From sequence record HQ711984.1: a DNA stretch of 49,135 nt. The stretch is one strand, 5' to 3'. Every line of letters starts with the position of its first letter. Position 1 is the first letter of the stretch. The position numbers and the translations under genes are program-made. The notes below the pieces were generated by a model. The model had not been told where the DNA came from and made no database searches. It worked only from the letters and a program-made list of their open reading frames with translations. Source of the stretch: Pseudomonas phage phi297. Shown one piece after another: positions 3,626 through 48,876 of this stretch.

Positions 3626-4269
3626 GGCAGCAACTCCTCCCCGACCTGGCGGGCATGCTCGATGGAGCTGGCCTTGATGCGCGTCCAGCCCTTGCCCCAG
3701 TCCTGGCTCAGGCCGCCCTGGTCCCGGAAGAACGGACCGTGCTTCACGAAGACCTTGTTGCCGGCGTTGCGGTGCACGAAGTAGGTGTCATCGTCGATCG
3801 GGTCGTCTGCGCGGTCATGCTCGATTGCCTTGTCGGCCGGCGCCGTGCGCCAGTCCGGCCAGGTGCGCGCCTCGTTCAGCGCCTGCTTGGCGACCAGGGC
3901 GTCGATGATCTGCGCCGGAGTGGCGCCGGTGCGCCAAGCCCCGTCAAGGGCCAGGATCACGACGTCGATCCACTCGGCCAGGTCGCCGGGGGCTTCTTCG
4001 ATTTCGCGCAACTCTTTGCGGATGTGGTCGACGACGCCAGCGGCGCGCGACCCAGGCCCGAACGTGCGTTCGCTGAACCGGCGCTGGCGCTCAAGGTGCA
4101 GGTCGAGACGGAACACGTCCAGCCGCCCTCGGGCGCGGCCAAGCGCGTAAGCCTCGTCCTGGAACATCAGGAGGTGATCGCTGGTGCGTCCGGTCAGGAC
4201 ATCGAGATAGCGGCTGTGGAGCGCTTCAATGGCAAGGTGATCGTCGGGGTGGTTCTGGTTCGTCGTCAT
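3622..4269 (-). CDS. MazG-like / DUF550-type nucleotide pyrophosphohydrolase
   Basis: Start at the internal ATG 4267-4269 with RBS AGGTG. The region DHIRKELREIEEAPGDLAEWIDVVILALDGAWRTG...ARTWPDW matches the all-alpha NTP-PPase (MazG/DUF550) pattern. ATGA overlap with the upstream gene stop. Confidence 0.6.
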   Translation of the reverse strand: MTTNQNHPDDHLAIEALHSRYLDVLTGRTSDHLLMFQDEAYALGRARGRLDVFRLDLHLERQRRFSERTFGPGSRAAGVVDHIRKELREIEEAPGDLAEWIDVVILALDGAWRTGATPAQIIDALVAKQALNEARTWPDWRTAPADKAIEHDRADDPIDDDTYFVHRNAGNKVFVKHGPFFRDQGGLSQDWGKGWTRIKASSIEHARQVGEELLP

Positions 4270-4694
4270 GGCTGCACCTGCTGAAGTGGGCGATGGCCTG
4301 GTTTCGGCGGTAGGTGTGGGGTGAGCAGCGCGTCCTCGAGGGACATGCCTGCGGCGAGTCGCCGGCGGACGGTGCTGGCCGAGACGGGGCTCGGCAGCAG
4401 GTCGACCAACTCTTCGAGGGTTCCGGTTCTGCCGCGCACGGTGTGGGTGTGCTTTTCCTTGCGTGCCTGGCGGGCCTGGTCCAGTGCGCGGGCGAGTGCC
4501 GGCGTGCAGTAGCCCCGTTTCTGCGAGTTGGCCCGCTTGTGGTCCAGCGACTGGCCCTTCGCCGGCCACTCGATGTCCGGCATCAGGGTCAGCATTTCGC
4601 GGAATACCCATGGGCCGATGCCCAGGGCCAGCCGGGTGGCGCGGCGGGAAAGCCCGCGCGCGGCCGCGTTTCGAATGAACTGTTCGGTGTTCAT
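4266..4694 (-). CDS. HTH DNA-binding protein (142 aa)
   Basis: ATG at 4694 with RBS AGGTGG. C-terminal GTLEELVDLLPSPVSASTVRRRLAAGMSLEDAL is a helix-turn-helix. Confidence 0.5.
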   Translation of the reverse strand: MNTEQFIRNAAARGLSRRATRLALGIGPWVFREMLTLMPDIEWPAKGQSLDHKRANSQKRGYCTPALARALDQARQARKEKHTHTVRGRTGTLEELVDLLPSPVSASTVRRRLAAGMSLEDALLTPHLPPKPGHRPLQQVQP

Positions 4695-4797
4695 GCCGCC
4701 ACCTGTTGCGGTCTCGGCCGTAGCCGCCGCTTCCATGGGTCGTTCGCCCGGCCGTACTGGGTTTTGAAGTCGAGCGGGGAGGGCTTCTTGAGGGAAG

Positions 4798-7428
4798 TCA
4801 TGCGGCGGGTTCCTTCTGGATGATTTCAGCATCAGCCTCGAGCAGGGCGAACAGGTCGGGCATGGCCATCTCTTCCTCCGCGGACTTGCAATAGCCGGCA
4901 CCGTCCAGGAAGTAGCGGGAGTTCAGTTCGTGGGCGCGGGTTCTGCGCTTGAGCTTCAGCGCGCAGTACGGGACGGTCATGATCCCGCCGAAGGGATCGA
5001 AGACCAGGTCTCCTTCCATGGAGTACTGCACGATGGCCCGGTCGACGATGTCGAACTGCAGCGGGCACAGGTGCATTTCCTGGCCCTTGCTGTACTGCTG
5101 GGCGTTGAGCGTCCGCATGCGGGCGACGTCGGTCCATACGTCCGGGTGCCAGGACTGCGGTGGCAGCAGCATGAAGCCGGTGGGCAGCTTCCCGGTGACC
5201 TCCAGCGATTCGCCGATGCGGACGTGGTGCTCGAAGTCGTAGACGGTGGACAGGCTGTAGTCGCGGTACAGCTTGAACATCACGTCGTGCGGAATGCCTT
5301 CGAAGTCCGCTTCAGTCAGCGGACGGTTGCCGTTGCTGCGGGTGAAGCCGTGGGCGTCCAACTGCCAGCGTGCCCGGCTGTAGCCGTTGCCGCGGGTGAC
5401 GGTGAGCTTCTTGTCCATGGCGAAGGGGACGATCTGGCCGTCTTCGTCGATGCACAGGGGCTTGGCCTTGACCACCGGAATGTCGCCGTAGGCGTTGGAG
5501 TTGTCGGTGGGGGGCTTGCGGAAGATCAGCAGGTACTCGGGCATGCCGACACCCATCTTGGTGCCGTCCTTGCACTGTTCCGTCCACGAGAGGCGGTAGG
5601 TCTGGGCGTTCTCGCGAACCACGTCGGTGACGATGGTCTTCATGCCCATATAGGCCCAGCCATGCTTGACGAAGGCTCGAGTCACTTCCATGTGGAAGGG
5701 GTAGACGGTCTGGAAGCCAAGGCCGGTCATTCCGCCGGGAATGATGCGATCCTTCACGTGGATGCAGGCCAGACGCCCGGGGATGGTCACGCGCAGCAGT
5801 TCCGGGATCAGATAGTCCATCTGCTCGAAGAAGTGCGCGTTGTCGTCGGTGTGGCCGAAGTCGGCGTAGTTCGGCGAGTACTCGTACTGGGTGCTGAAGG
5901 GGATGCTGGTGATGGTCAAGCCGACGCTGTTGCTTTCCATGCGGCAGGTTTCGAGCACGGTGTCGTTGTTGACGATGGTGTAGTCCTTGCCCTTGATCTC
6001 GACGCGCTCCACGCCCATGGAGCGGGTGAGGGTCTGTGCCATGGCGGCCACGGACAGGCCGTACTGCTTGATGATCTCGGTCATGCGCTGAACCATGGTG
6101 TTGTGCTGCTGCCACTTCCGTTCGAGTTGGCGGCGGATGTCGCGCTCGGCCTCGGTATAGATCAGGTCGATGCGCACACGGCCTGTCTGCAGGAATCGGT
6201 GCAGGCGGTGAATGGACTGGATGAAGTCGTTGAACTTGAAGCCGATGCCCAGGTAGATGGCCCACGAGCAGTGGCGCTGGAAGTTGCAGCCGCTGCCTGC
6301 GATCACTGGTTTGGCAGCCAGTTCCTGGAACTCGCCGTCGCTGAACTGGACAATCGCGCGCTCGCGCTCCTCCAGATCCTGGGCGCCGTAGACGCTGATG
6401 GCGGTGGGGATAGCGGCCTCGATCGCGTGGCGTTCCGCCTCGAGGTCATGCCAGATGATCCGGTGAGCATCTGGAGCCTCGGCCCGGATCTCCATCAGTT
6501 TGGCGATCCGGGCAGGAAGGCTCTCGCGCTTCTCTGCGGCGGCGTCCTGCACGCCAATGGCGGTGTTGCGAAGCAGGCGGCCCTGGCCGTTACGCTCATG
6601 GCCAGCGTGCGAGTGGTCGGACGGTACTTCGTGCCAGCGGATGTCCAGTTCCGGTAGCGCGTAGCCTTCGTCGCTGAACCCGAGGTCGCTGGGGCGCTGA
6701 ACGAAGATCGCCCAGGACGCCACCCACATCCAGAACTCGCCCTCTTTGTGGGCATGGATGGTGAGTTGGTCGGCCTTCTCAGAGTTGCGTTTGAAGAACC
6801 TGGTCTTGGCCTGGCCGACATCCATCACGCCGAGGAAGGCCGAGTAAGCCAGTAGCTCGATGTATTCGTTCGGGCTTGGCGTGGCAGTGGCCACGTACCG
6901 GTACCGGACGCCATCGCCGCGGACGCCGGCGGCGCGATCGTCACCAGCGAACAGAGCCATGAACTCGCGGAACGTCTTGCTGCCGCCGAAGCCGCGAAGG
7001 CAACTGGCTTCGTCCAGGCTTGCCACGCTGAACCGGCGAGGGTCGAGCTTGCCGTCGCGGACGGTCTCGTAATTGGTCAGGTAGATGGTGGTGGGGTCGT
7101 CTACCTCGTCGAAACTGCGGATGAACCGGACGGTGATGCCGAGCATCGCGGCGTCGCGGTAGAACTCCTGGCGCACACCCAGCGGAATGGTGATGAGAGC
7201 GTAGCCGCCGGCTAGGTCGCGGGTGACGCGCACCACCTCAAGCTGCATTACCGACTTGCCCAGGCCGAAGGCCGCGAAACAGGCCGCGCGGCCTTGGCGC
7301 ACCAGCCAGGTGGCGATGGCGCGCTGGTGCGGCTTGAGCAGGGGGTTGAAGGCCGAGGGCTCCACTTCGAAGCCTTTCGGCTCGGCGAGGCGGACCTTCG
7401 CTCGCAAGAAGTCTTCATAGGCGGTCAT
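4798..7428 (-). CDS. SNF2/DEAD-like helicase fused to beta-class DNA (N6-A/N4-C) methyltransferase
   Basis: 876 aa from ATG 7428 with RBS AAGGAA. N-terminal Walker A FGLGKS and DEAS box (ASLDEAS). The C-terminal half carries a beta-class SPPY-like motif IV (TSIPFSTQYEY) followed by motif I (VFDPFGG). Confidence 0.8.
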   Translation of the reverse strand: MTAYEDFLRAKVRLAEPKGFEVEPSAFNPLLKPHQRAIATWLVRQGRAACFAAFGLGKSVMQLEVVRVTRDLAGGYALITIPLGVRQEFYRDAAMLGITVRFIRSFDEVDDPTTIYLTNYETVRDGKLDPRRFSVASLDEASCLRGFGGSKTFREFMALFAGDDRAAGVRGDGVRYRYVATATPSPNEYIELLAYSAFLGVMDVGQAKTRFFKRNSEKADQLTIHAHKEGEFWMWVASWAIFVQRPSDLGFSDEGYALPELDIRWHEVPSDHSHAGHERNGQGRLLRNTAIGVQDAAAEKRESLPARIAKLMEIRAEAPDAHRIIWHDLEAERHAIEAAIPTAISVYGAQDLEERERAIVQFSDGEFQELAAKPVIAGSGCNFQRHCSWAIYLGIGFKFNDFIQSIHRLHRFLQTGRVRIDLIYTEAERDIRRQLERKWQQHNTMVQRMTEIIKQYGLSVAAMAQTLTRSMGVERVEIKGKDYTIVNNDTVLETCRMESNSVGLTITSIPFSTQYEYSPNYADFGHTDDNAHFFEQMDYLIPELLRVTIPGRLACIHVKDRIIPGGMTGLGFQTVYPFHMEVTRAFVKHGWAYMGMKTIVTDVVRENAQTYRLSWTEQCKDGTKMGVGMPEYLLIFRKPPTDNSNAYGDIPVVKAKPLCIDEDGQIVPFAMDKKLTVTRGNGYSRARWQLDAHGFTRSNGNRPLTEADFEGIPHDVMFKLYRDYSLSTVYDFEHHVRIGESLEVTGKLPTGFMLLPPQSWHPDVWTDVARMRTLNAQQYSKGQEMHLCPLQFDIVDRAIVQYSMEGDLVFDPFGGIMTVPYCALKLKRRTRAHELNSRYFLDGAGYCKSAEEEMAMPDLFALLEADAEIIQKEPAA

Positions 7429-41483: not shown

Positions 41484-43724
41484 ATGACGACCTACGCCAC
41501 CGGTAACCCGCTGGGCTCCAAAGACCCGCGTGATCTGTACGACAACGCCGAGAACTTCGACGCGGCGATGAACGACCGGGTGAATACCACGTGGAATGAT
41601 CGTTTCGGCGTTAGTCGCCCAACGATGAAAGGGTATGAGGAACAGTTCAACGACTGGCTGGATGCTCAAGGATTCGAGCCAGGCTTCCTTGAATATGTCG
41701 ACGGCTCCCCGCTGACCGTAGATCGTCCGACCCAACTGATCCAGCGCGGGGACAACATCTACAGCGTCAAGCGCCCGGCATCGTTCCCCGTTGAGCTGAC
41801 CGGGAACTGGTCCACCGACCAGAACCTGCTGGTTGCCCAGGTTGACCGGACGCTGCAAGACACCCTGGCCACCAGCGCTGGCGCCGGGATGATCGGCTAT
41901 CGCGAGCGCACCGTAGCCGACCGCCTGAACGATACTGCGAACGTAAAGGACTACGGAGCAATCGCAGATGGGGCGTATCACCCGTTGTCAGAGCGGTTCG
42001 CTACGCTCGCCGAGGCGCAGGCGGTCTATCCGCACGCCACTGCGCTGACCGACAGTATCGATTGGGCGGCGTATCAGGCGGCAATCAACTCCGGGGCGCC
42101 GCATGTGCATGCGCCAGGCGGCCACTACGTCATGAATCGCGGAACTCTCGCTGAGCGGGATATTCGGTATACCGGCGATGGCTATGCTACCCGCGTAGAT
42201 TTCAGCCTCGCAGATGGCCCAGGTAGCTGCATGCTGACGCAGGGTGAGCTTGTGCAAATCGGCGATCTGTCCGTGAGCGTGGTTAAAGGCGCTCGCACGC
42301 TGACATTTGCCGCTGCGCCAGACCTGGCTCCGGGCGACGTGGTCATCGTGTACAACCCCGCCAACGGATCTTGGCTGGCTGATCGCGATCCGTATCGCGC
42401 TGGCGAGATGTGGAAAGTCCATTCGGTAAGCGGTAGCACTGTCACGATCTACGGAAACAGCTCGTCGGTGTACCTGTTCTCCGAGGTAGACGTATACCGC
42501 ATGCGCGGCGTGCGCGTGTCTGTCGATCAGATGCATTTTTCGCCATCGGACACATATGCTATTGCGCCGTTCAGGGTGGTTTTCGGTGATGGAGTTAAGG
42601 TTTCCAACTACTACGCTAGCGATGTCACGCGTTACACAGGGCTAGAAGTAGAACGATGCTTTGACGTTTCGATCAATGCGGTTTCAAGCCCGAACAGATC
42701 GCCGGCAGTCAATGACGAATATGGGATTACTATCTCGAACTGCCATAATTTCTCGGTGTACGGTGGTTATGCAGCGGCAACCAGGCATGCTGTCGCGCTC
42801 GGCGGAATGGACGCTGTGTGCTGCGTGCCCAACCGTAACGGACTGATTTACGGTATGCATATAGAGGGCATCGATATCGATTCGGATATTGGTGCGGGAG
42901 ATATGCATGGCAACGCCGACAAAATCACATACGACAACTGCGAGTTTCGGAACGGGGTGATTCTTCAAGGACGAGACGCCACCGTCCGTAACAGCACTAT
43001 CTATGGCGTTTCGAGCGTTTCGGGCGAAGCTCTATACGGGACCGAAGTGTATGGCGGGACGTATACAATCGAGAACAATCGTTTTATCAGTTACGGAAAC
43101 GGTGCGTCTTTCGGCATCATCCATATTTCACCAGGGACGAGCCAGCGCGAAGCGCTGCTGATCATCGCGAGAAACAATACATTCGAACTGCCGAATGCCA
43201 CAGGATCGACAAAGGTGCTGTTCTTGCGCGGACGCAATAGTCCGCTCCCGTGTAGTGTTAACATCGACGGCATGCATGTCCACATGGCGCCTGTTGCGAT
43301 GCAGTGTTTCCTTTTCGCAGACGACCAAGTTGCAGCAACTCTGAACAGTAACTATCTGATCATTGACGGCGTATATGGGCCTAGTGGTACGTACCTGCTG
43401 TATCCAACCTCGAAGAATGCCGCCATACCGACCAGGCAGATGCACCAGTCCGGCGCGGTGAACGTGACTACTACGGCTTCCGCTACGGTTGCAGCCCCAG
43501 CTCAGACCATTCGCTACCCATACTCCAAGATACCCAACGTTAGCGTGCAGGTTTCCAGTCAGTCGGGCGGTGGTCAGAGCGCAATCGGGTCAATCACCCC
43601 TGTGGCGATTGCGTACAATGTGCAGCCGAACAGCATCAGGCCTGCAATCATGGCGCCCAGCGGATCGTTCGCGGCCGGAGGCTCCGCTCGTCTTCACTGG
43701 TCTGCTAGCCTAGATGATATTTGA
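41484..43724 (+). CDS. tailspike with pectate-lyase-like right-handed beta-helix (polysaccharide depolymerase)
   Basis: VKDYGAIADGAYHP is a Pectate_lyase_3 hallmark. Conserved N-terminal anchor domain. RBS GGAGAA. Confidence 0.75.
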   Translation: MTTYATGNPLGSKDPRDLYDNAENFDAAMNDRVNTTWNDRFGVSRPTMKGYEEQFNDWLDAQGFEPGFLEYVDGSPLTVDRPTQLIQRGDNIYSVKRPASFPVELTGNWSTDQNLLVAQVDRTLQDTLATSAGAGMIGYRERTVADRLNDTANVKDYGAIADGAYHPLSERFATLAEAQAVYPHATALTDSIDWAAYQAAINSGAPHVHAPGGHYVMNRGTLAERDIRYTGDGYATRVDFSLADGPGSCMLTQGELVQIGDLSVSVVKGARTLTFAAAPDLAPGDVVIVYNPANGSWLADRDPYRAGEMWKVHSVSGSTVTIYGNSSSVYLFSEVDVYRMRGVRVSVDQMHFSPSDTYAIAPFRVVFGDGVKVSNYYASDVTRYTGLEVERCFDVSINAVSSPNRSPAVNDEYGITISNCHNFSVYGGYAAATRHAVALGGMDAVCCVPNRNGLIYGMHIEGIDIDSDIGAGDMHGNADKITYDNCEFRNGVILQGRDATVRNSTIYGVSSVSGEALYGTEVYGGTYTIENNRFISYGNGASFGIIHISPGTSQREALLIIARNNTFELPNATGSTKVLFLRGRNSPLPCSVNIDGMHVHMAPVAMQCFLFADDQVAATLNSNYLIIDGVYGPSGTYLLYPTSKNAAIPTRQMHQSGAVNVTTTASATVAAPAQTIRYPYSKIPNVSVQVSSQSGGGQSAIGSITPVAIAYNVQPNSIRPAIMAPSGSFAAGGSARLHWSASLDDI

Positions 43725-43857
43725 TAGTTAGGTCTGGGCGCTTTTCTGGCCCGGGCCTATTTTAAATGTCCTGATAGTATGTCGCTATAAAAAGCACAAG
43801 GATGAATGCTGCTATTGATATTACTTTTGTTATTTGGTCGAAGATTGTGCGAAGCAT

Positions 43858-45012
43858 TTAATTGTCCTCGATTTTAAGATTAGATGATGAGTAAAGCCCA
43901 AGTGCGGCAGGTAGTAATAAATATGTAAAGTATTTCCCAACAAGAAGAAGCACTATTGTCACTGCGAGAATTGAGAATGCGGATATTTCTCTATTAGTCT
44001 GCGCGCTTCCGAGTGCTATATTTATTCCTAGTTTTACGGTTGGACCTATTGAGATGATGAGTATAAACAAGAATCCGAATAGTCCTAGGTCGTTCCATGC
44101 TGAAAGGATGTTGTGTATGTACTCGCCTTTTTCATATTTTCCATAGTTTCCTAGTATTGGGCTTTCCATTATCTTGTTTAGTCCTTCAGATGCTATACGG
44201 CTCCGCTCATTGCTCGAATTGTCATGCTGAAGATCAAGCAGATTTGCTACTCTGCTATCTGGAATCTCCACTATTCCAGAACTAATGGTTGCCACTGATC
44301 CTGCTGAAACTATGATAAGGGCAAGTATAGGGAGTCCCTTGTTTTTTGACGACAGAAACTCGTAGGTTGCCGCAAATAGAGCGTATGCAACGAATTCGCT
44401 TCTCGCACCATTTATGTAAAGGCAGGCTATCGCTACAGCATGCGCAATGCATCTGGTAGGCAATGATCGCACTCCCGTAACAAGAGCAACCGAAAGCAGC
44501 AAGTAACAGAGGGCGAAGGTTTGATATCCCGGTATCTTATCTACGTCGCTGGGGAGCTCTCTAAGCGAGAATCTTCCGTCTACAGTAAATATAAGAATGC
44601 ATGCGGATGAAGCAATCCACGCAGTTTTAAGAGCTAGCCCCGGTAGTCGGTCAACTCTGAAAGCACCCTTGCATATAAGAAAAACGGCTGCGCATTGTGC
44701 GATTGAAACCATGTGCCATGTGAAGATATAGCTTTCTTCTTCTCTGTTTAAAATTACGATGCACAGGAAAAATAGAAGAAATCCAAAGTACGTCAGATCA
44801 ATTACAGCTATTCGTCCTGTTCTGAGCGTGGTCCACAGATATAGCGGAGCAAGTATTGCGAGCGCGGCTGCGGATGTTTTTCCAAAGTATCCAGTAATAA
44901 GCGCCGGAATCAGTCCATTTGTTGTCGCTACGTAATAAAGAATCGTTCCTGGGAACAGGAGAAGGAAAAGGATGTATGGGACGGTTGAAAACGGGATCTT
45001 GGTCCTATTCAT
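43858..45012 (-). CDS. wzy: Wzy-type O-antigen polymerase/ligase-family polytopic membrane protein (serotype conversion)
   Basis: 384 aa with ~10 TM helices and a large periplasmic loop. GC is far below the prophage average. RBS GGAGAAAGGAA. Confidence 0.7.
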   Translation of the reverse strand: MNRTKIPFSTVPYILFLLLFPGTILYYVATTNGLIPALITGYFGKTSAAALAILAPLYLWTTLRTGRIAVIDLTYFGFLLFFLCIVILNREEESYIFTWHMVSIAQCAAVFLICKGAFRVDRLPGLALKTAWIASSACILIFTVDGRFSLRELPSDVDKIPGYQTFALCYLLLSVALVTGVRSLPTRCIAHAVAIACLYINGARSEFVAYALFAATYEFLSSKNKGLPILALIIVSAGSVATISSGIVEIPDSRVANLLDLQHDNSSNERSRIASEGLNKIMESPILGNYGKYEKGEYIHNILSAWNDLGLFGFLFILIISIGPTVKLGINIALGSAQTNREISAFSILAVTIVLLLVGKYFTYLLLPAALGLYSSSNLKIEDN

Positions 45013-45104
45013 GCGTATTTCCTTTCTCCATTCCTTAAAACGTGGCGCGTCATGGTACGCGCTTCATTCATGCTAGTCATTGGATAGTGAATCGCCATGC
45101 CCAT
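45009..45104 (-). CDS. possible 31-aa ORF translationally coupled (ATGA) to wzy
   Basis: The hydrophilic sequence MGMAIHYPMTSMNEARTMTRHVLRNGERKYA argues against a membrane peptide. Confidence 0.15.
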   Translation of the reverse strand: MGMAIHYPMTSMNEARTMTRHVLRNGERKYA

Positions 45105-45173
45105 CACTGAGCAGCAACTGCTGCGAATTCTCCCGAACGCCGGCCCTCGAGCCGGCGTTTTTGTTGGAGCGCG

Positions 45174-45914
45174 TCACGCAGTACCTCGCCGATCCCTGCG
45201 GAGGTAAGACTCCCTTTCCCGCCGAGCGGCGAGCCGCCCGCAGGTCCTTACCGCAATATCGACCGGTATTCCGGCTTTGATGCGCTGGTGGGCGGTAGAG
45301 ACGTTGACTCCGAAGTGAGCACAGGCCTGGGCAATACTGGCGAACTGAGTGCCGTCGATCTCGACTCCGGTCAGGCGTCGCTGGTTCTCGGACGCTTGCT
45401 GATGGATCGTGGCCCATCGGCAGTTTTCAGGACAGTAGTCACCGTCTGGGTCGATTCGATCGATGCTGTACCTCCCAGCAGGCCGAGGCCCCATGTCTTT
45501 GAGGAAAGCCTCGAACGACTGATTCCAACGTTCGCAGACCTTGATACCGCGACCGCCCCAGTTAGGGAAGTCCTTGTACTTCTCGTCGTAGCACCTGCGT
45601 TTCATGCCTAGCCAGGTTCTGTACTCCGGGGTTTTCAACCCTCGACGGCTGTGCCCGTGCGCGGTGACTTTGGCTGTACGCTTCCTGACGAATTCCCTGT
45701 TTGAGCCAAGCGCTGAAGCCCATTCGCTGGCGAGGCACCCGCATGAACGTGTCGAGCCGCTTCGCAAGTTCGACGAGTTCACCTTTACCTCGGCTCCGCA
45801 CTCGCACCGGCAGAGCCAGACAGATCCTCCGTTTTTCCCGGGAGAGTCGTAGGCGACCACCAAAAGGCGCCCATAGCGAAGCCCGGAGATATCGATCCGT
45901 TTCATTTCATTCAC
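45174..45914 (-). CDS. HNH/AP2-like DNA-binding protein with C-terminal HTH (homing-endonuclease-like)
   Basis: N-terminal GRLLVV...WLCRCECG. Tandem EYRTWLGMKRRC and GRGIKVCERW motifs. C-terminal HTH QFASIAQACAHFGV. Confidence 0.5.
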   Translation of the reverse strand: MNEMKRIDISGLRYGRLLVVAYDSPGKNGGSVWLCRCECGAEVKVNSSNLRSGSTRSCGCLASEWASALGSNREFVRKRTAKVTAHGHSRRGLKTPEYRTWLGMKRRCYDEKYKDFPNWGGRGIKVCERWNQSFEAFLKDMGPRPAGRYSIDRIDPDGDYCPENCRWATIHQQASENQRRLTGVEIDGTQFASIAQACAHFGVNVSTAHQRIKAGIPVDIAVRTCGRLAARRERESYLRRDRRGTA

Positions 45915-45935
45915 CTATTGAGAGAGGGACCGCCG

Positions 45936-46418
45936 ATGGCAGTCGTTTCCGAGAAAACCGCTGGAGGGAGGAACGTTCTTGCGTTCCTGGACATGCTTGC
46001 GTGGTCTGAGGGGACCAGCACGATCAGAGGTAGCGACAACGGCTACAACGTTGTTGTCGGTGGAGGGCTGTTCAATGGGTACGCTGATCACCCGCGCCTG
46101 AAGGTCTATCTGCCTCGCTACAAGGTTTATTCAACTGCGGCGGGCAGGTATCAGCTCCTTTCGAGGTACTGGGACGCCTACCGCGAAAGCCTGGCACTGA
46201 AAGGAGGTTTCACCCCATCTAACCAGGACCTGGTGGCGTTGCAGCAGATTAAGGAGCGACGCTCGCTCGCAGATATACAGGCTGGTCGCTTGGCGGATGC
46301 AGTGCAGAAGTGTTCCAACATCTGGGCCAGCCTGCCGGGGGCTGGTTACGGCCAACGCGAGCATTCTCTTGATGACCTGACCGCGCACTACCTTGCGGCG
46401 GGCGGAGTCCTTTCATGA
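45936..46418 (+). CDS. endolysin, lambda R-like lytic transglycosylase
   Basis: LAFLDMLAWSEGT...YNVVVGG...AGRYQLLSRYWDAY...ALQQIKERR...CSNIWASLPGAGYGQ is near-collinear with lambda R. Confidence 0.9.
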   Translation: MAVVSEKTAGGRNVLAFLDMLAWSEGTSTIRGSDNGYNVVVGGGLFNGYADHPRLKVYLPRYKVYSTAAGRYQLLSRYWDAYRESLALKGGFTPSNQDLVALQQIKERRSLADIQAGRLADAVQKCSNIWASLPGAGYGQREHSLDDLTAHYLAAGGVLS

Positions 46419-47109: not shown

Positions 47110-47144
47110 GAGTAGACTACGGCCTTTTCCTACGGAGCTCGGTG

Positions 47145-47408
47145 ATGCTGGTGATTCGATTCAGGGGCTGGTCGGTGAAACTCGACCACCAGGTGGGCAG
47201 CGCTGGCAAGTTCGGCATCTGGTCGTTCCACGGCTCGGAGAGCAGCTACGTGCCGGACATGCAGACGATTCTCCGGCATGCTGCTATTCGGCCTGCGGAG
47301 CCGAAAGAAGGCGGGGAGGTCGAGGTATTCATCTGTGATTCGCGCATGCCGCAGGATGAGTGGCGGCCTGTCGGTAGCGGCGTTGCGGCCTACGAGTCGG
47401 ACCGCTGA
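47145..47408 (+). CDS. hypothetical protein (87 aa), last gene before att
   Basis: ATG 47145 with GGAG. Confidence 0.35.
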   Translation: MLVIRFRGWSVKLDHQVGSAGKFGIWSFHGSESSYVPDMQTILRHAAIRPAEPKEGGEVEVFICDSRMPQDEWRPVGSGVAAYESDR

Positions 47409-47529
47409 ATGCTGGCCGTGACGGAAACGTGAAGCACGGAAATGGAAAACGTGAAAAGGAATTTCACGATTGGCACAGTTTAAGTGATTGCGGTCGGCGT
47501 AAACTGTTGTAATATAAGCGCTTCTGAGG

Positions 47530-47594
47530 TGCGAGACAGGATTTAGGTTCCAGCGCCGCAAGGCGTGAGAGTTCGAGTCTCTCCGTCCGCACCA
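47530..47594 (+). other. 3' fragment of a class-II tRNA (variable arm, T-arm GAGAG-TTCGAGT-CTCTC, acceptor 3' strand, CCA): putative attR core
   Basis: GGTTCGAGTCTCTCCGTCCGCACCA ends at 47594. No complementary 5' acceptor strand (GCGGACG) occurs upstream. Confidence 0.5.
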
Positions 47595-47709
47595 TACTTC
47601 TCTTTCGCGATCCTTCGTGTTCCTTCGCAAGCTCAGTAATTCCGGGGCTTGCAGCCGATTAGTCTCTTCCGTTGGCTTCCGCCACAATTCGCCACCAGCC
47701 GCGTTTTTT

Positions 47710-47758
47710 TAGTACATTCCTTAGTACATCTGAATTTGGTTTTTCCGGGAATGTACTA
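47710..47758. repeat. 8-bp TAGTACAT repeats: two direct copies (47710-17, 47722-29) and one inverted copy ATGTACTA (47751-58) abutting the int start codon
   Basis: Exact copies in an AT-rich leader. Candidate arm-type or AlpA sites. Confidence 0.4.
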
Positions 47759-48876
47759 TGCCGCTCACGGATACTGCTGTCCGCCAGGCAAAAGCAGAAG
47801 CTAAAGACTACACCCTCGCCGACATTGACGGCCTCTCTCTCTTCGTTTCTCACAAGGGCACCAAAAGCTGGCACTTCCGCTTTTCGCTGAATGGCCAGCA
47901 GAAGCGAGTGTCGCTTGGGACGTATCCCGAGTTGAGCCTGCGTGATGCCCGGCAGCGCCGTGACGAGGCGCGTTCGTTGGTGGCCCAAGGTATCGATCCG
48001 CGGGGGCAGCATCGAGCGGACCGGAAGACGGTCAGCGTCGAGGAGACGTTTCGACACGTGGCTGAACAGTGGCTGGAGTTGAAACAGGGGCGCTGGGCGG
48101 ACGATAGCCGGAAAGGCAGCGCAAACCAGGCGCGCAGAGTATTGGACAATGACCTATACCCGGCCCTGGCGAATATGAAGTTTCGCGAAATTCACCGTCG
48201 TGACCTGGCTGCGGTTGTCGGAGCCATCGAGCGCCGGGGAGCGCTGCACGTCGCGGAGAAGGCGCGGAGTTGGTTACGCCAGATCTTCCGCGTTGGGATC
48301 GCGGCCGGATTACGAGAGGACAACCCTGCCTCGGACCTGGACATTCTGGCGAAAGAACAGCCGCCGACTGAGCACAATCCGATTCTTGCGCATGATGGCG
48401 AAGAGCTTCCAGCCCTTCTTGTGAGACTGCGGTCTTACCAGGGGTCCGAGATCACAAGGATCGCCGTTCGTCTGATGCTTCTGACCGCGGTACGTACGAT
48501 CGAGCTTCGAAAGGCTGCGCCGGCAGACTTCGATCTAGAAAAGGGGATATGGACTGTCCCGCCCGGAAGGGTGAAGCAATTGCGCGGCAAGGTGCGCAAG
48601 GACGGGGAAGAGGTACCTCCGTACATCGTGCCGCTGTCGCGGCAAGCGATTGAGGAGGTCAGGCGGTTGCTGCAGAAGACGGGAAAATACCCGTTCGCGT
48701 TCGCAGGTCGAAATGATCCGACGAAGATGATGAACCCAAACGCCGTTAGCCAAGTGATTAAGCGCCTTGAGTTCGATGAACCACTAACTGGCCATGGTTG
48801 GAGACTGTCTCGAGTGCGCTACGTGCAGCACTGCCGTGGTTACTTGGTTCGGTTGGAGCAGGCTGCCCCGGAGTGA
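47758..48876 (+). pseudogene. int: P4-like tyrosine integrase (DUF4102 N-domain), apparently C-terminally truncated
   Basis: Box R (TAVRTIELRK) and HGWR are present. The ORF stops ~23 aa later, before the expected second His and catalytic Tyr. It abuts a convergent alpA gene with zero gap. Confidence 0.5.

Follow-up and report, generated by a model that had tools for sequence, protein, structure and literature searches.

The low-GC block that follows the tailspike gene of Pseudomonas phage phi297 is, with a probability that we put at about 0.88, the two-gene form (iap and wzy(beta)) of the D3-type serotype-converting unit, a moron that separates the tailspike gene from the lysis genes. The conversion system itself is already known: the system has been published, and so have phages that carry it, the phi297 wzy(beta) included. 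The sole new point is that phages of the phi297 type do carry iap, against a published statement. Our analysis covered the whole stretch of 49,135 nucleotides of record HQ711984.1, called the window below. The features in and around the block are the following, with coordinates given in the window.

41484-43724, plus strand: tailspike gene (phi297 gp61 type), encoding a beta-helix pectin-lyase-like fold; homologue of LKA1 gp49, convergent with wzy(beta).
43729-43765, plus strand: intrinsic-terminator-like hairpin and U-run after the tailspike stop codon (fold -27.8 kcal/mol, z -5.19).
43762-43857, minus strand: iap, encoding a 31-aa hydrophobic single-span peptide, MLRTIFDQITKVISIAAFILVLFIATYYQDI; homologue of D3 Iap.
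43858-45012, minus strand: wzy(beta), encoding the O-antigen beta-polymerase, a polytopic inner-membrane protein of 384 aa; GC 0.434.
45009-45107, minus strand: hydrophilic upstream ORF, 32 aa from a GTG start and 31 aa from an internal ATG; best read as non-coding.
45013-45125, minus strand: conserved wzy(beta) leader, presumed to hold the cassette promoter and ribosome-binding site; near-identical in all loci.
45097-45172, plus strand: remnant of a GH19 endolysin gene, its first ~25 codons (MPITEQQLL...); right-hand edge of the cassette.

The original prediction had described a block of GC far below that of the phage, carrying a Wzy-type gene for O-antigen conversion, and was right on both counts. 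GC is 0.434 in 43725-45096 against 0.621 in the whole window, and this interval is the minimum among all windows of 1372 nt (median 0.63; 5th percentile 0.539). The same contrast is seen at third codon positions, where GC is 0.395 in the wzy(beta) ORF against 0.651 in the tailspike gene and 0.688 in the HNH gene. The gene encodes a D3-type Wzy(beta), as detailed below, and the block is a low-GC moron. Gene order is that of D3, PMG1 and Fyn8 minus oac, and exactly that of Marin, PP9W and FBPa19.

The expectation that a small inhibitor of the host alpha-polymerase might accompany the polymerase was partly correct. A predicted inhibitor gene does exist in the block; the ORF examined for this role, at the start of wzy(beta), was the wrong one, the true iap being located behind wzy(beta) at 43762-43857 (minus strand). 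Its ATG directly follows the wzy(beta) stop codon (TAAATG junction), and a GAGGA Shine-Dalgarno motif is present 7 nt upstream of this ATG, within the 3′ end of wzy. The encoded peptide, with a mean Kyte-Doolittle hydropathy of 1.26, matched D3 Iap by BLASTP (E 4e-8) and the PHROG family that includes D3 Iap (phrog_34981, E 2.4e-5). The C-terminus IATYYQDI is common to phi297 Iap and the D3 Iap translation, and overall the two are 42-52% identical, the figure varying with the alignment. With a Pfam cut-off as loose as E 10, the Iap peptides matched no family, Wzz included.

At the nucleotide level, the gene is 55% identical to D3 iap, with the N-terminal part (about one third to two thirds) diverged. 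In the last 8 codons all 6 differences from D3 are synonymous, and these codons appear to carry the signature of purifying selection. An intact 31-aa iap ORF was found in 6/6 phage records, in 6/6 P. aeruginosa genome loci and in all 18 of the IMG/VR contigs carrying the iap C-terminal DNA pattern. In 15 of these 18 contigs iap abuts wzy(beta) without oac, as in phi297, and in P. aeruginosa prophages the two-gene form is commoner than the form with oac. Phage and genome records, those of Marin, PP9W and FBPa19 among them, leave iap unannotated or label it 'hypothetical'. Judged by its sequence, 43762-43857 is a true iap homologue and a predicted inhibitor of the host polymerase, overlooked both in the first reading of this DNA and in the phi297 literature.

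A review has stated the opposite: as no inhibitor was annotated, it took phi297 to be without one (PMC3564109). On that reading, phi297 would possess a beta-polymerase and no working inhibitor; Wzy(alpha) would remain active, the lysogen antigen would be mixed alpha/beta, and conversion would be partial. The phi297-type Iap is indeed unnamed in any database. In PAO1, wzy(beta) on its own yields mixed alpha- and beta-linked antigen (PMC4815439). Converting activity has been reported for phi297, together with a partial adsorption block; D3 still adsorbs to phi297 lysogens, giving small plaques, which Krylov et al. attributed to incomplete conversion (PMC3564109). We nevertheless consider the published reading unlikely, since an intact iap homologue, preceded by a Shine-Dalgarno motif of its own, stands directly behind wzy(beta) and is kept, with a signature of purifying selection, in every related locus. 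Moreover, residual D3 adsorption is equally explained by missing O-acetylation or by the difference between the D3 and phi297 tailspikes, which are 81% identical.

The hydrophilic ORF originally considered for the inhibitor role, and already doubted there, is present as described on the minus strand at 45009-45107, overlapping the wzy start as ATGA. Could it encode a regulatory or inhibitory peptide translationally coupled to wzy(beta)? The overlap would suit such a role, as would the very high nucleotide conservation of the stretch and an ORF that is open in 23/25 loci. However, a 1-nt deletion frameshifts the ORF in 2 related loci, and a GTG to GGG change removes the start in another. Substitutions are close to the neutral ratio (6 nonsynonymous versus 2 synonymous), and the ORF has no Pfam match and no PHROG match. 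Its peptide is hydrophilic, which Iap is not, and some of the underlying DNA is left over from the endolysin gene on the opposite strand. A promoter or leader function explains the conservation better. A translated peptide is therefore very improbable, and the doubt expressed about this ORF as an Iap was justified.

The leader is kept in FBPa19 although the sequence farther upstream there is unrelated. In an O16 strain, the 500 bp upstream of wzy(beta) have been shown experimentally to contain promoter activity (PMC4815439). No sigma-70 match fell within the wzy leader in a consensus promoter/terminator scan of 43600-45300, so the exact position of the promoter in the leader is presumptive; the matches obtained were all inside wzy and no more numerous than in shuffles. 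The pair ATGACT-17 nt-TACCAT in the leader matches a promoter at 8/12 positions by eye and is not claimed as one. An inverted repeat in the leader (GCGCGT-ACCATG-ACGCGC) was likewise rejected as a structured element, because it is not strictly conserved and the leader fold has a z of -0.69 against shuffles.

The polymerase itself had been predicted as a polytopic Wzy-like protein, which was borne out for the ORF at 43858-45012. The protein is 91% identical over 383 aa to D3 Wzy(beta) (AAF80789.2), the experimentally proven beta-polymerase of O5-to-O16 serotype conversion (PMC4815439). It is 97% identical to a P. aeruginosa protein cluster of 391 member sequences, and the identical protein recurs across many assemblies of P. 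aeruginosa (44 index blocks). The residues listed as essential for Wzy(beta) (PMC4815439), namely R147, R151 and G162 (RX10G), R254, R270, R272, K295, and H300 and G310 (HX9-10G), are all at the same positions in the phi297 protein; among 13 family members, R254, R270, H300 and G310 are invariant. The ORF matched phrog_19842 (E 3.5e-259). PHROGs classes Wzy(beta) as a nucleic-acid 'polymerase'. Pfam Wzy_C (PF04932) matched residues 192-301 with E 9.6e-6 and 25.9 bits, under the gathering score of 31.7; the precomputed Pfam list of the 97%-identical cluster representative does contain PF04932. That this single Pfam match is named 'O-antigen ligase', and that databases use the name 'O-antigen ligase domain-containing protein', might suggest a WaaL-like ligase or another Wzy_C superfamily member with no polymerase function, but this can hardly hold for a protein 91% identical to one genetically shown to be a beta-polymerase. 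According to the authors, Wzy(beta) fails to complement a waaL mutant (PMC4815439), and in chromosomal O-antigen clusters related genes stand where wzy is expected, beside wzx and glycosyltransferase genes.

On the left, the cassette adjoins a convergent gene for a tailspike of pectate-lyase fold, in agreement with the original prediction. The product of 41484-43724 (plus strand) matched PF22442 (Gp49 pectin-lyase-like, E 1.6e-138) and PF20745 (TSP Ig-like, E 5e-43). Residues 143-746 (604 residues) are 100% identical to the phi297 tailspike structure PDB 4RU5, and the published phi297 gp61d cloning primers match the sequence found here. Identity to LKA1 gp49 (4RU4) is 32% (E 1.6e-74). O5-specific O-antigen lyase activity, with specificity for the alpha linkage, has been shown for LKA1 gp49, in a study where phi297 gp61 served for crystallographic phasing (PMC5701251). 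We presume from this sequence relationship that the phi297 tailspike is the receptor-binding and O-antigen-cleaving protein.

The terminator-like hairpin occupies the 37 nt that separate the converging tailspike and iap genes, its U-run overlapping the iap stop codon. On the plus strand, 0/200 shuffles folded as well as 43729-43765; the minus strand of the same interval is weak (-11.6 kcal/mol, z -1.4), and fold analysis of the minus strand after iap gave no convincing terminator. At the right-hand edge, dozens of Pseudomonas phages matched 45097-45172 alone, through the 5′ end of a gene that carries the annotation 'lytic enzyme', 'endolysin' or 'pyocin R2_PP'. In Marin, PP9W and Fyn8 the GH19 endolysin gene is intact and divergent and adjoins wzy(beta), as seen from the Marin and PP9W annotations and from alignment of the upstream region. 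A scan of the window for tRNA and tmRNA genes found none, so a tRNA-borne att site cannot be shown.

The D3 unit comprises iap, oac and wzy(beta) (PMC3594210). The claim that phi297 has no O-acetylase gene was confirmed by tblastn of D3 Oac against the whole window, which returned nothing better than E 2, and for this reason we assign the block to the two-gene form and not to the three-component D3 form. In other respects the phi297 block resembles the D3 unit (Newton et al. 2001): the polymerases are 91% identical, Iap is a 31-aa peptide with the same C-terminus, GC is 0.43, and the unit is placed between a Gp49-like tailspike gene and the HNH and lysis genes. Unlike in D3, iap abuts the wzy(beta) 3′ end on the same strand. 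In D3 a 2-kb oppositely oriented oac separates the two genes, and D3 iap must have its own promoter. We considered whether D3 oac had simply been inserted into a unit of the abutting type. This was rejected: homology to phi297 ends 13 nt before the wzy stop codon, and the flanking alleles have diverged (55% nucleotide identity for iap, 81% amino-acid identity for the tailspike 3′ end), so the oac difference between D3 and phi297 is not a clean indel.

The O2/O16 serotype-converting unit (Kaluzny et al. 2007; Taylor et al. 2016) likewise consists of iap and wzy(beta), is constitutive there and gives a beta-linked antigen; the numbering of its essential-site residues fits phi297 Wzy(beta) exactly. 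Other close likenesses are Marin, PP9W, FBPa19, FBPa42 and the 15 IMG/VR prophage contigs, which share the order tailspike-iap-wzy(beta) without oac at 86-95.5% nucleotide identity over the block. They differ from phi297 in the right-hand neighbour, an intact GH19 endolysin gene in such relatives and an integrase gene in FBPa19, and the FBPa19 tailspike has a different N-terminal adaptor.

Iap-like ORFs also occur farther afield. ORFs of 31-35 aa ending in A-x-[YF]-Y-[QP]-D-[IL] go with distant prophage Wzy homologues (40-56% identity) in 4/4 distinct prophage settings, which represent 5 loci, one strain having contributed two. In chromosomal O-antigen clusters with a related Wzy, such ORFs are missing from 3/3. 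A Gp49-like tailspike adjoins the Iap/Wzy(beta)-like pairs in all but one prophage of several Pseudomonas species. Three gene orders were observed, with iap after wzy, iap before wzy, or oac between iap and wzy, and some units have an O-acetylase or a C5-epimerase as an optional addition. Salmonella phage epsilon15 follows the same logic, an alpha-polymerase inhibitor and a phage beta-polymerase altering the phage's own O-antigen receptor; its host and O-antigen differ, and epsilon15 removes acetylation where D3 adds it.

We propose that conversion by phi297 proceeds as follows. The tailspike would attach the phage to the alpha-linked O-specific antigen on strains of serogroup O2, e.g., O5/PAO1, as suggested by homology to the LKA1 gp49 O5 lyase. 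In the lysogen, a promoter in the conserved leader (~110 nt) would drive wzy(beta) and iap as one minus-strand transcript; the TAAATG junction and the Shine-Dalgarno motif that the genes share are our grounds for inferring co-transcription. Iap, with its single inner-membrane span, would imitate a Wzz transmembrane segment and so shut down the retaining host Wzy(alpha), as shown for D3 Iap and expected here by homology. D3 Iap is described as a single-span Wzz mimic in two papers (PMC3854497; PMC12004945), which disagree on whether TMS1 or TMS2 of Wzz is mimicked. Wzy(beta), inverting and Iap-insensitive, would then polymerise the same Und-PP-linked trisaccharide through beta(1-4) inter-repeat bonds where Wzy(alpha) forms alpha(1-4) bonds; beta(1-4) linking has been shown for the D3 and O16 Wzy(beta), all of whose essential residues are conserved in the phi297 protein. 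The expected product is a beta-linked O16/O2-type antigen, non-acetylated because oac is missing, which would lower adsorption of phi297 and of other O5-specific phages.

The biology of such conversion is itself settled, and the practical value of the present analysis is an annotation correction for the 31-aa iap beside wzy(beta). In P. aeruginosa in-silico serotyping, presence of wzy(beta) separates serogroup O2/O16 from O5 (PMC9973846), and O-antigen conversion alters susceptibility to O-antigen-dependent therapeutic phages and tailspike enzymes. Genome-based prediction of serotype and host range should seek the iap-wzy(beta) pair, and oac separately. More broadly, phages of the phi297 type are probably not 'polymerase-only' but possess the full wzy(beta)-iap operon, in unannotated form, and Iap probably belongs to a wider family of single-span peptides that travels with prophage Wzy(beta)-like polymerases and is missing from chromosomal clusters. 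If so, the reason why phi297 lysogens exclude D3 only in part would be missing acetylation, not missing Iap, and the invariant C-terminal motif of Iap, rather than its membrane span, may be the functional determinant.

GC content across the window was 0.621 overall and fell to 0.434 at 43725-45096, the minimum among all 1372-nt windows (median 0.63, 5th percentile 0.539), confirming the low-GC block of the original prediction. GC was below 0.50 in no further 400-nt window. At third codon positions, GC was 0.395 in the wzy ORF, versus 0.651 in the tailspike gene and 0.688 in the HNH gene. The predicted convergence of wzy with a pectin-lyase-fold tailspike and the small ORF coupled to the wzy start via ATGA were both recovered, in the following layout.

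41484-43724, plus strand: tailspike gene, 746-aa ORF, convergent with the wzy ORF
43762-43857, minus strand: putative iap, 31-codon ORF, starting right after the wzy stop (TAAATG)
43858-45012, minus strand: wzy(beta), 384-aa ORF
45009-45107, minus strand: small upstream ORF, in ATGA overlap with the wzy start
45097-45172, plus strand: GH19 endolysin relic, the first ~25 codons, adjoining the wzy leader
45174-45914, minus strand: HNH endonuclease gene
45918-46418, plus strand: lysozyme-type endolysin

The tailspike gene is closed by a hairpin and U-run (43729-43765, plus strand, -27.8 kcal/mol, z -5.2); no comparable terminator was found 3′ of iap on the minus strand. As predicted, the O-acetylase gene (oac) is absent, since the D3 protein used as a tblastn query gave no match anywhere in the window.

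Comparison with phage records supported the main reading of a Wzy-type O-antigen conversion gene. Blastn with 43600-45300 matched 77 Pseudomonas phages. In Marin (95.5%), PP9W (91.7%) and FBPa19/FBPa42 (85.9%) the match runs from the tailspike 3′ end across wzy, and in D3, PMG1 and phi_D3 (about 90%) and Fyn8 (88%) it begins at the wzy end and runs onward. The window protein shares 91% identity with D3 Wzy(beta) and 97% with a P. aeruginosa protein cluster of 391 member sequences. Pfam Wzy_C scored 25.9 bits, below its cut-off of 31.7. The Wzy(beta) residues found important by mutagenesis are all kept, with the same numbering (R147/R151 and G162, R254, R270, R272, K295, H300 and G310). Public labels for this O-antigen polymerase are misleading: PHROGs family 19842 files it as 'polymerase' under 'DNA, RNA and nucleotide metabolism', FBPa19 labels it 'phosphatidate cytidylyltransferase', and Marin and the RefSeq D3 and PMG1 records name it merely 'polymerase'.

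The inhibitor of the host alpha-polymerase appears to lie at the other end of wzy. D3 iap is annotated as 31 codons between the tail-fibre gene and oac, with the translation (V)HLKFSIIVIKAVGITAFMALVLIATYYQDI. The 31-codon ORF downstream of wzy, preceded by a GAGGA motif 7 nt upstream of its start, encodes MLRTIFDQITKVISIAAFILVLFIATYYQDI, which matched D3 Iap by BLASTP (E 4e-8) and the PHROG family containing D3 Iap (E 2.4e-5). The last eight codons differ from those of D3 at 6 synonymous and 0 nonsynonymous positions, leaving identical residues. On these sequence comparisons, the iap homologue at 43762-43857 (minus strand) is the probable true inhibitor gene. The ORF, in several sequence variants, was intact in 6/6 phage records, in 6/6 P. 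aeruginosa genome loci encoding identical Wzy(beta), and in all 18 IMG/VR contigs retrieved by searching DNA with a degenerate motif of the Iap C-terminus. It abuts wzy(beta) without oac in 15 of these contigs, like the window, and the other 3 follow the D3 layout, oac included. Only the D3 type goes by the name Iap in the protein collection searched; no name is attached to the window-type peptide, and the variants of PP9W and FBPa42 appear there as 'hypothetical' or 'uncharacterized'. In one IMG/VR contig (IMGVR_UViG_2734482524_000015, L029 1153-2404), the Wzy(beta) match breaks off after 295 residues, ~270 nt short of an intact iap, a possible case of a disrupted polymerase with a retained inhibitor gene.

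The original prediction had considered the hydrophilic ORF upstream of wzy as a doubtful Iap-like inhibitor. It was right to doubt, but the wrong small ORF had been considered. Among 25 loci, a 1-nt deletion frameshifts the upstream ORF in two and its GTG start is GGG in one; its substitutions (6 nonsynonymous, 2 synonymous) are in an about neutral ratio, and it has no match in Pfam or PHROG. An inhibitory role for it is very unlikely. In all loci compared, the ~100 nt ahead of wzy hardly differ, and in FBPa19 this leader is conserved although the sequence beyond is unrelated. The most fitting interpretation of this stretch is that it serves wzy(beta) as leader and promoter. Promoter activity has been demonstrated in an O16 strain in the 500 bp preceding wzy(beta) (PMC4815439); since a consensus scan of the leader found none, we infer the exact promoter position here. 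Beyond the leader, Marin, PP9W and Fyn8 retain a full GH19 endolysin gene that points away from wzy. An HNH endonuclease gene and a lysozyme-type endolysin stand in its place in the window, as they do in D3 and PMG1, and the GH19 relic looks like the visible scar of a lysis-module swap.

Distant Wzy homologues occur in two settings, prophages (four distinct; five loci, two from one strain) and chromosomal O-antigen clusters. The prophage loci were as follows.

L013, myovirus-like prophage: Wzy identity 56%, Gp49-like tailspike, Iap-like MMLQKSVTIAFKAAVAMVFMAACLVAIFYPDL after wzy
L014, P. plecoglossicida prophage: Wzy identity 50%, C5-epimerase, Iap-like MLSTAVSHATHAIFVSTLIALSVIAMFYQDI overlapping the wzy stop
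L015/L016, Pseudomonas sp. CK-NBRI-02: Wzy identity 55%, Gp49-like tailspike, D3-type order with oac, Iap-like MLEKSAIAALKMAAMIVFMAICLVAAYYPDL
L019, P. putida: Wzy identity 40%, Gp49-like tailspike, oac, Iap-like 35 aa (...LLASFYQDL) before wzy

No Iap-like ORF was found in the chromosomal clusters L017 (P. kilonensis), L018 (P. shirazica) and L020. A scan of the loci gathered to that point for short ORFs ending in the Iap motif gave wzy-adjacent ones only, and M1, A25, Y28 and D30 were invariant in an alignment of nine distinct Iap peptides. GC is 0.41-0.44 in all Pseudomonas wzy genes of the family, phage-borne and chromosomal alike, which fits capture of wzy from an O-antigen cluster, as we infer.

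In L014 (2249-5286, GCA_013523035.1), where a tail-fibre assembly gene was called but no tailspike, a PF06662 C5-epimerase-domain gene lies directly upstream of the Wzy(beta) homologue. Epimerase, Wzy homologue and Iap-like ORF may together form a conversion module of three parts, able to epimerise a uronic acid as well, which recalls how members of P. aeruginosa serogroup O2 differ in mannuronic versus guluronic residues. In L019 (1670-7248, GCA_024266625.1), the Iap-like ORF (3882-3989) is upstream of wzy, not downstream, with oac on the opposite side and the tailspike 56 nt past wzy, a third gene order for one set of parts.

The tailspike matched Pfam Gp49 pectin-lyase-like (E 1.6e-138) and TSP Ig-like (E 5e-43) domains. 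Residues 143-746 are 100% identical to PDB 4RU5, the phi297 tailspike, named gp61 in the LKA1 paper, whose published gp61 cloning primers agree with the window at the tailspike gene end; it is also related to 4RU4 (LKA1 gp49; E 1.6e-74). On this evidence the window represents phi297 itself or a phage nearly identical to it. LKA1 gp49 acts by beta-elimination at the mannuronic-mannuronic bond, and its trisaccharide product contains the Wzy-made FucNAc(1-4) bond (PMC5701251). An alpha to beta change of that bond would modify the substrate adjoining the scissile bond, and by analogy this argument would extend to the phi297 tailspike, 32% identical to LKA1 gp49.

The FBPa19 tailspike (vB_PaeP_FBPa19, L004 712-3150) shares 93% identity over window residues 124-746, and the catalytic part of the L013 tailspike (4030-6279) 68%. 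These loci have this catalytic part and iap-wzy(beta) in common despite other tail types and N-terminal adaptors, and tailspike body and conversion genes seem to move as a single block. A P. aeruginosa prophage (GCA_047819045.1, L010 7156-9707) has an identical wzy(beta)-iap pair beside a 726-aa tailspike conserved only in its first 204 residues, with an unrelated receptor domain, indicating that recombination can uncouple the conversion genes from the tailspike. A 24-codon remnant of the former tailspike C-terminus (…ARLHWSASLDDI) persists after iap, and an AcrF2-family anti-CRISPR gene lies in the vicinity (3765-4040).

Elsewhere, part of 25000-49135 showed megablast-level similarity to nine Salmonella phage records, consistent with phi297 having been described in print as a mosaic that includes segments of enterobacterial phages. 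Just downstream of the lysis genes, a lower-GC stretch (47130-47760, 0.50-0.55) precedes an integrase-like 372-aa ORF (47758-48876, plus strand). No tRNA gene, and hence no tRNA-borne attachment site, was found in the entire window.

The conversion system and the phage are both already known. D3 converts PAO1 from O5 to O16 through iap, wzy(beta) and oac (PMC3594210). Iap inserts into the inner membrane via one span, and its inhibition of host Wzy requires Wzz1 and Wzz2 and is relieved when Wzz is overexpressed, behaviour that has been taken as Wzz mimicry (PMC3854497, PMC12004945). Wzy(beta), an inverting enzyme, escapes Iap, and PAO1 with wzy(beta) alone makes both alpha- and beta-linked antigen (PMC4815439). 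Taylor 2016 implies an active inhibitor in O2 and O16 strains. By homology, the window operon would be expected to produce a full switch to beta-linked, non-acetylated antigen. Krylov et al. concluded that phi297 lacks the inhibitor and put the small plaques of D3 on phi297 lysogens down to incomplete conversion (PMC3564109); the window sequence, however, does contain an iap homologue, with oac as the sole missing D3 component. Two points go beyond the ordinary: the correction of the iap annotation, and a wider Iap family with a conserved C-terminal motif.
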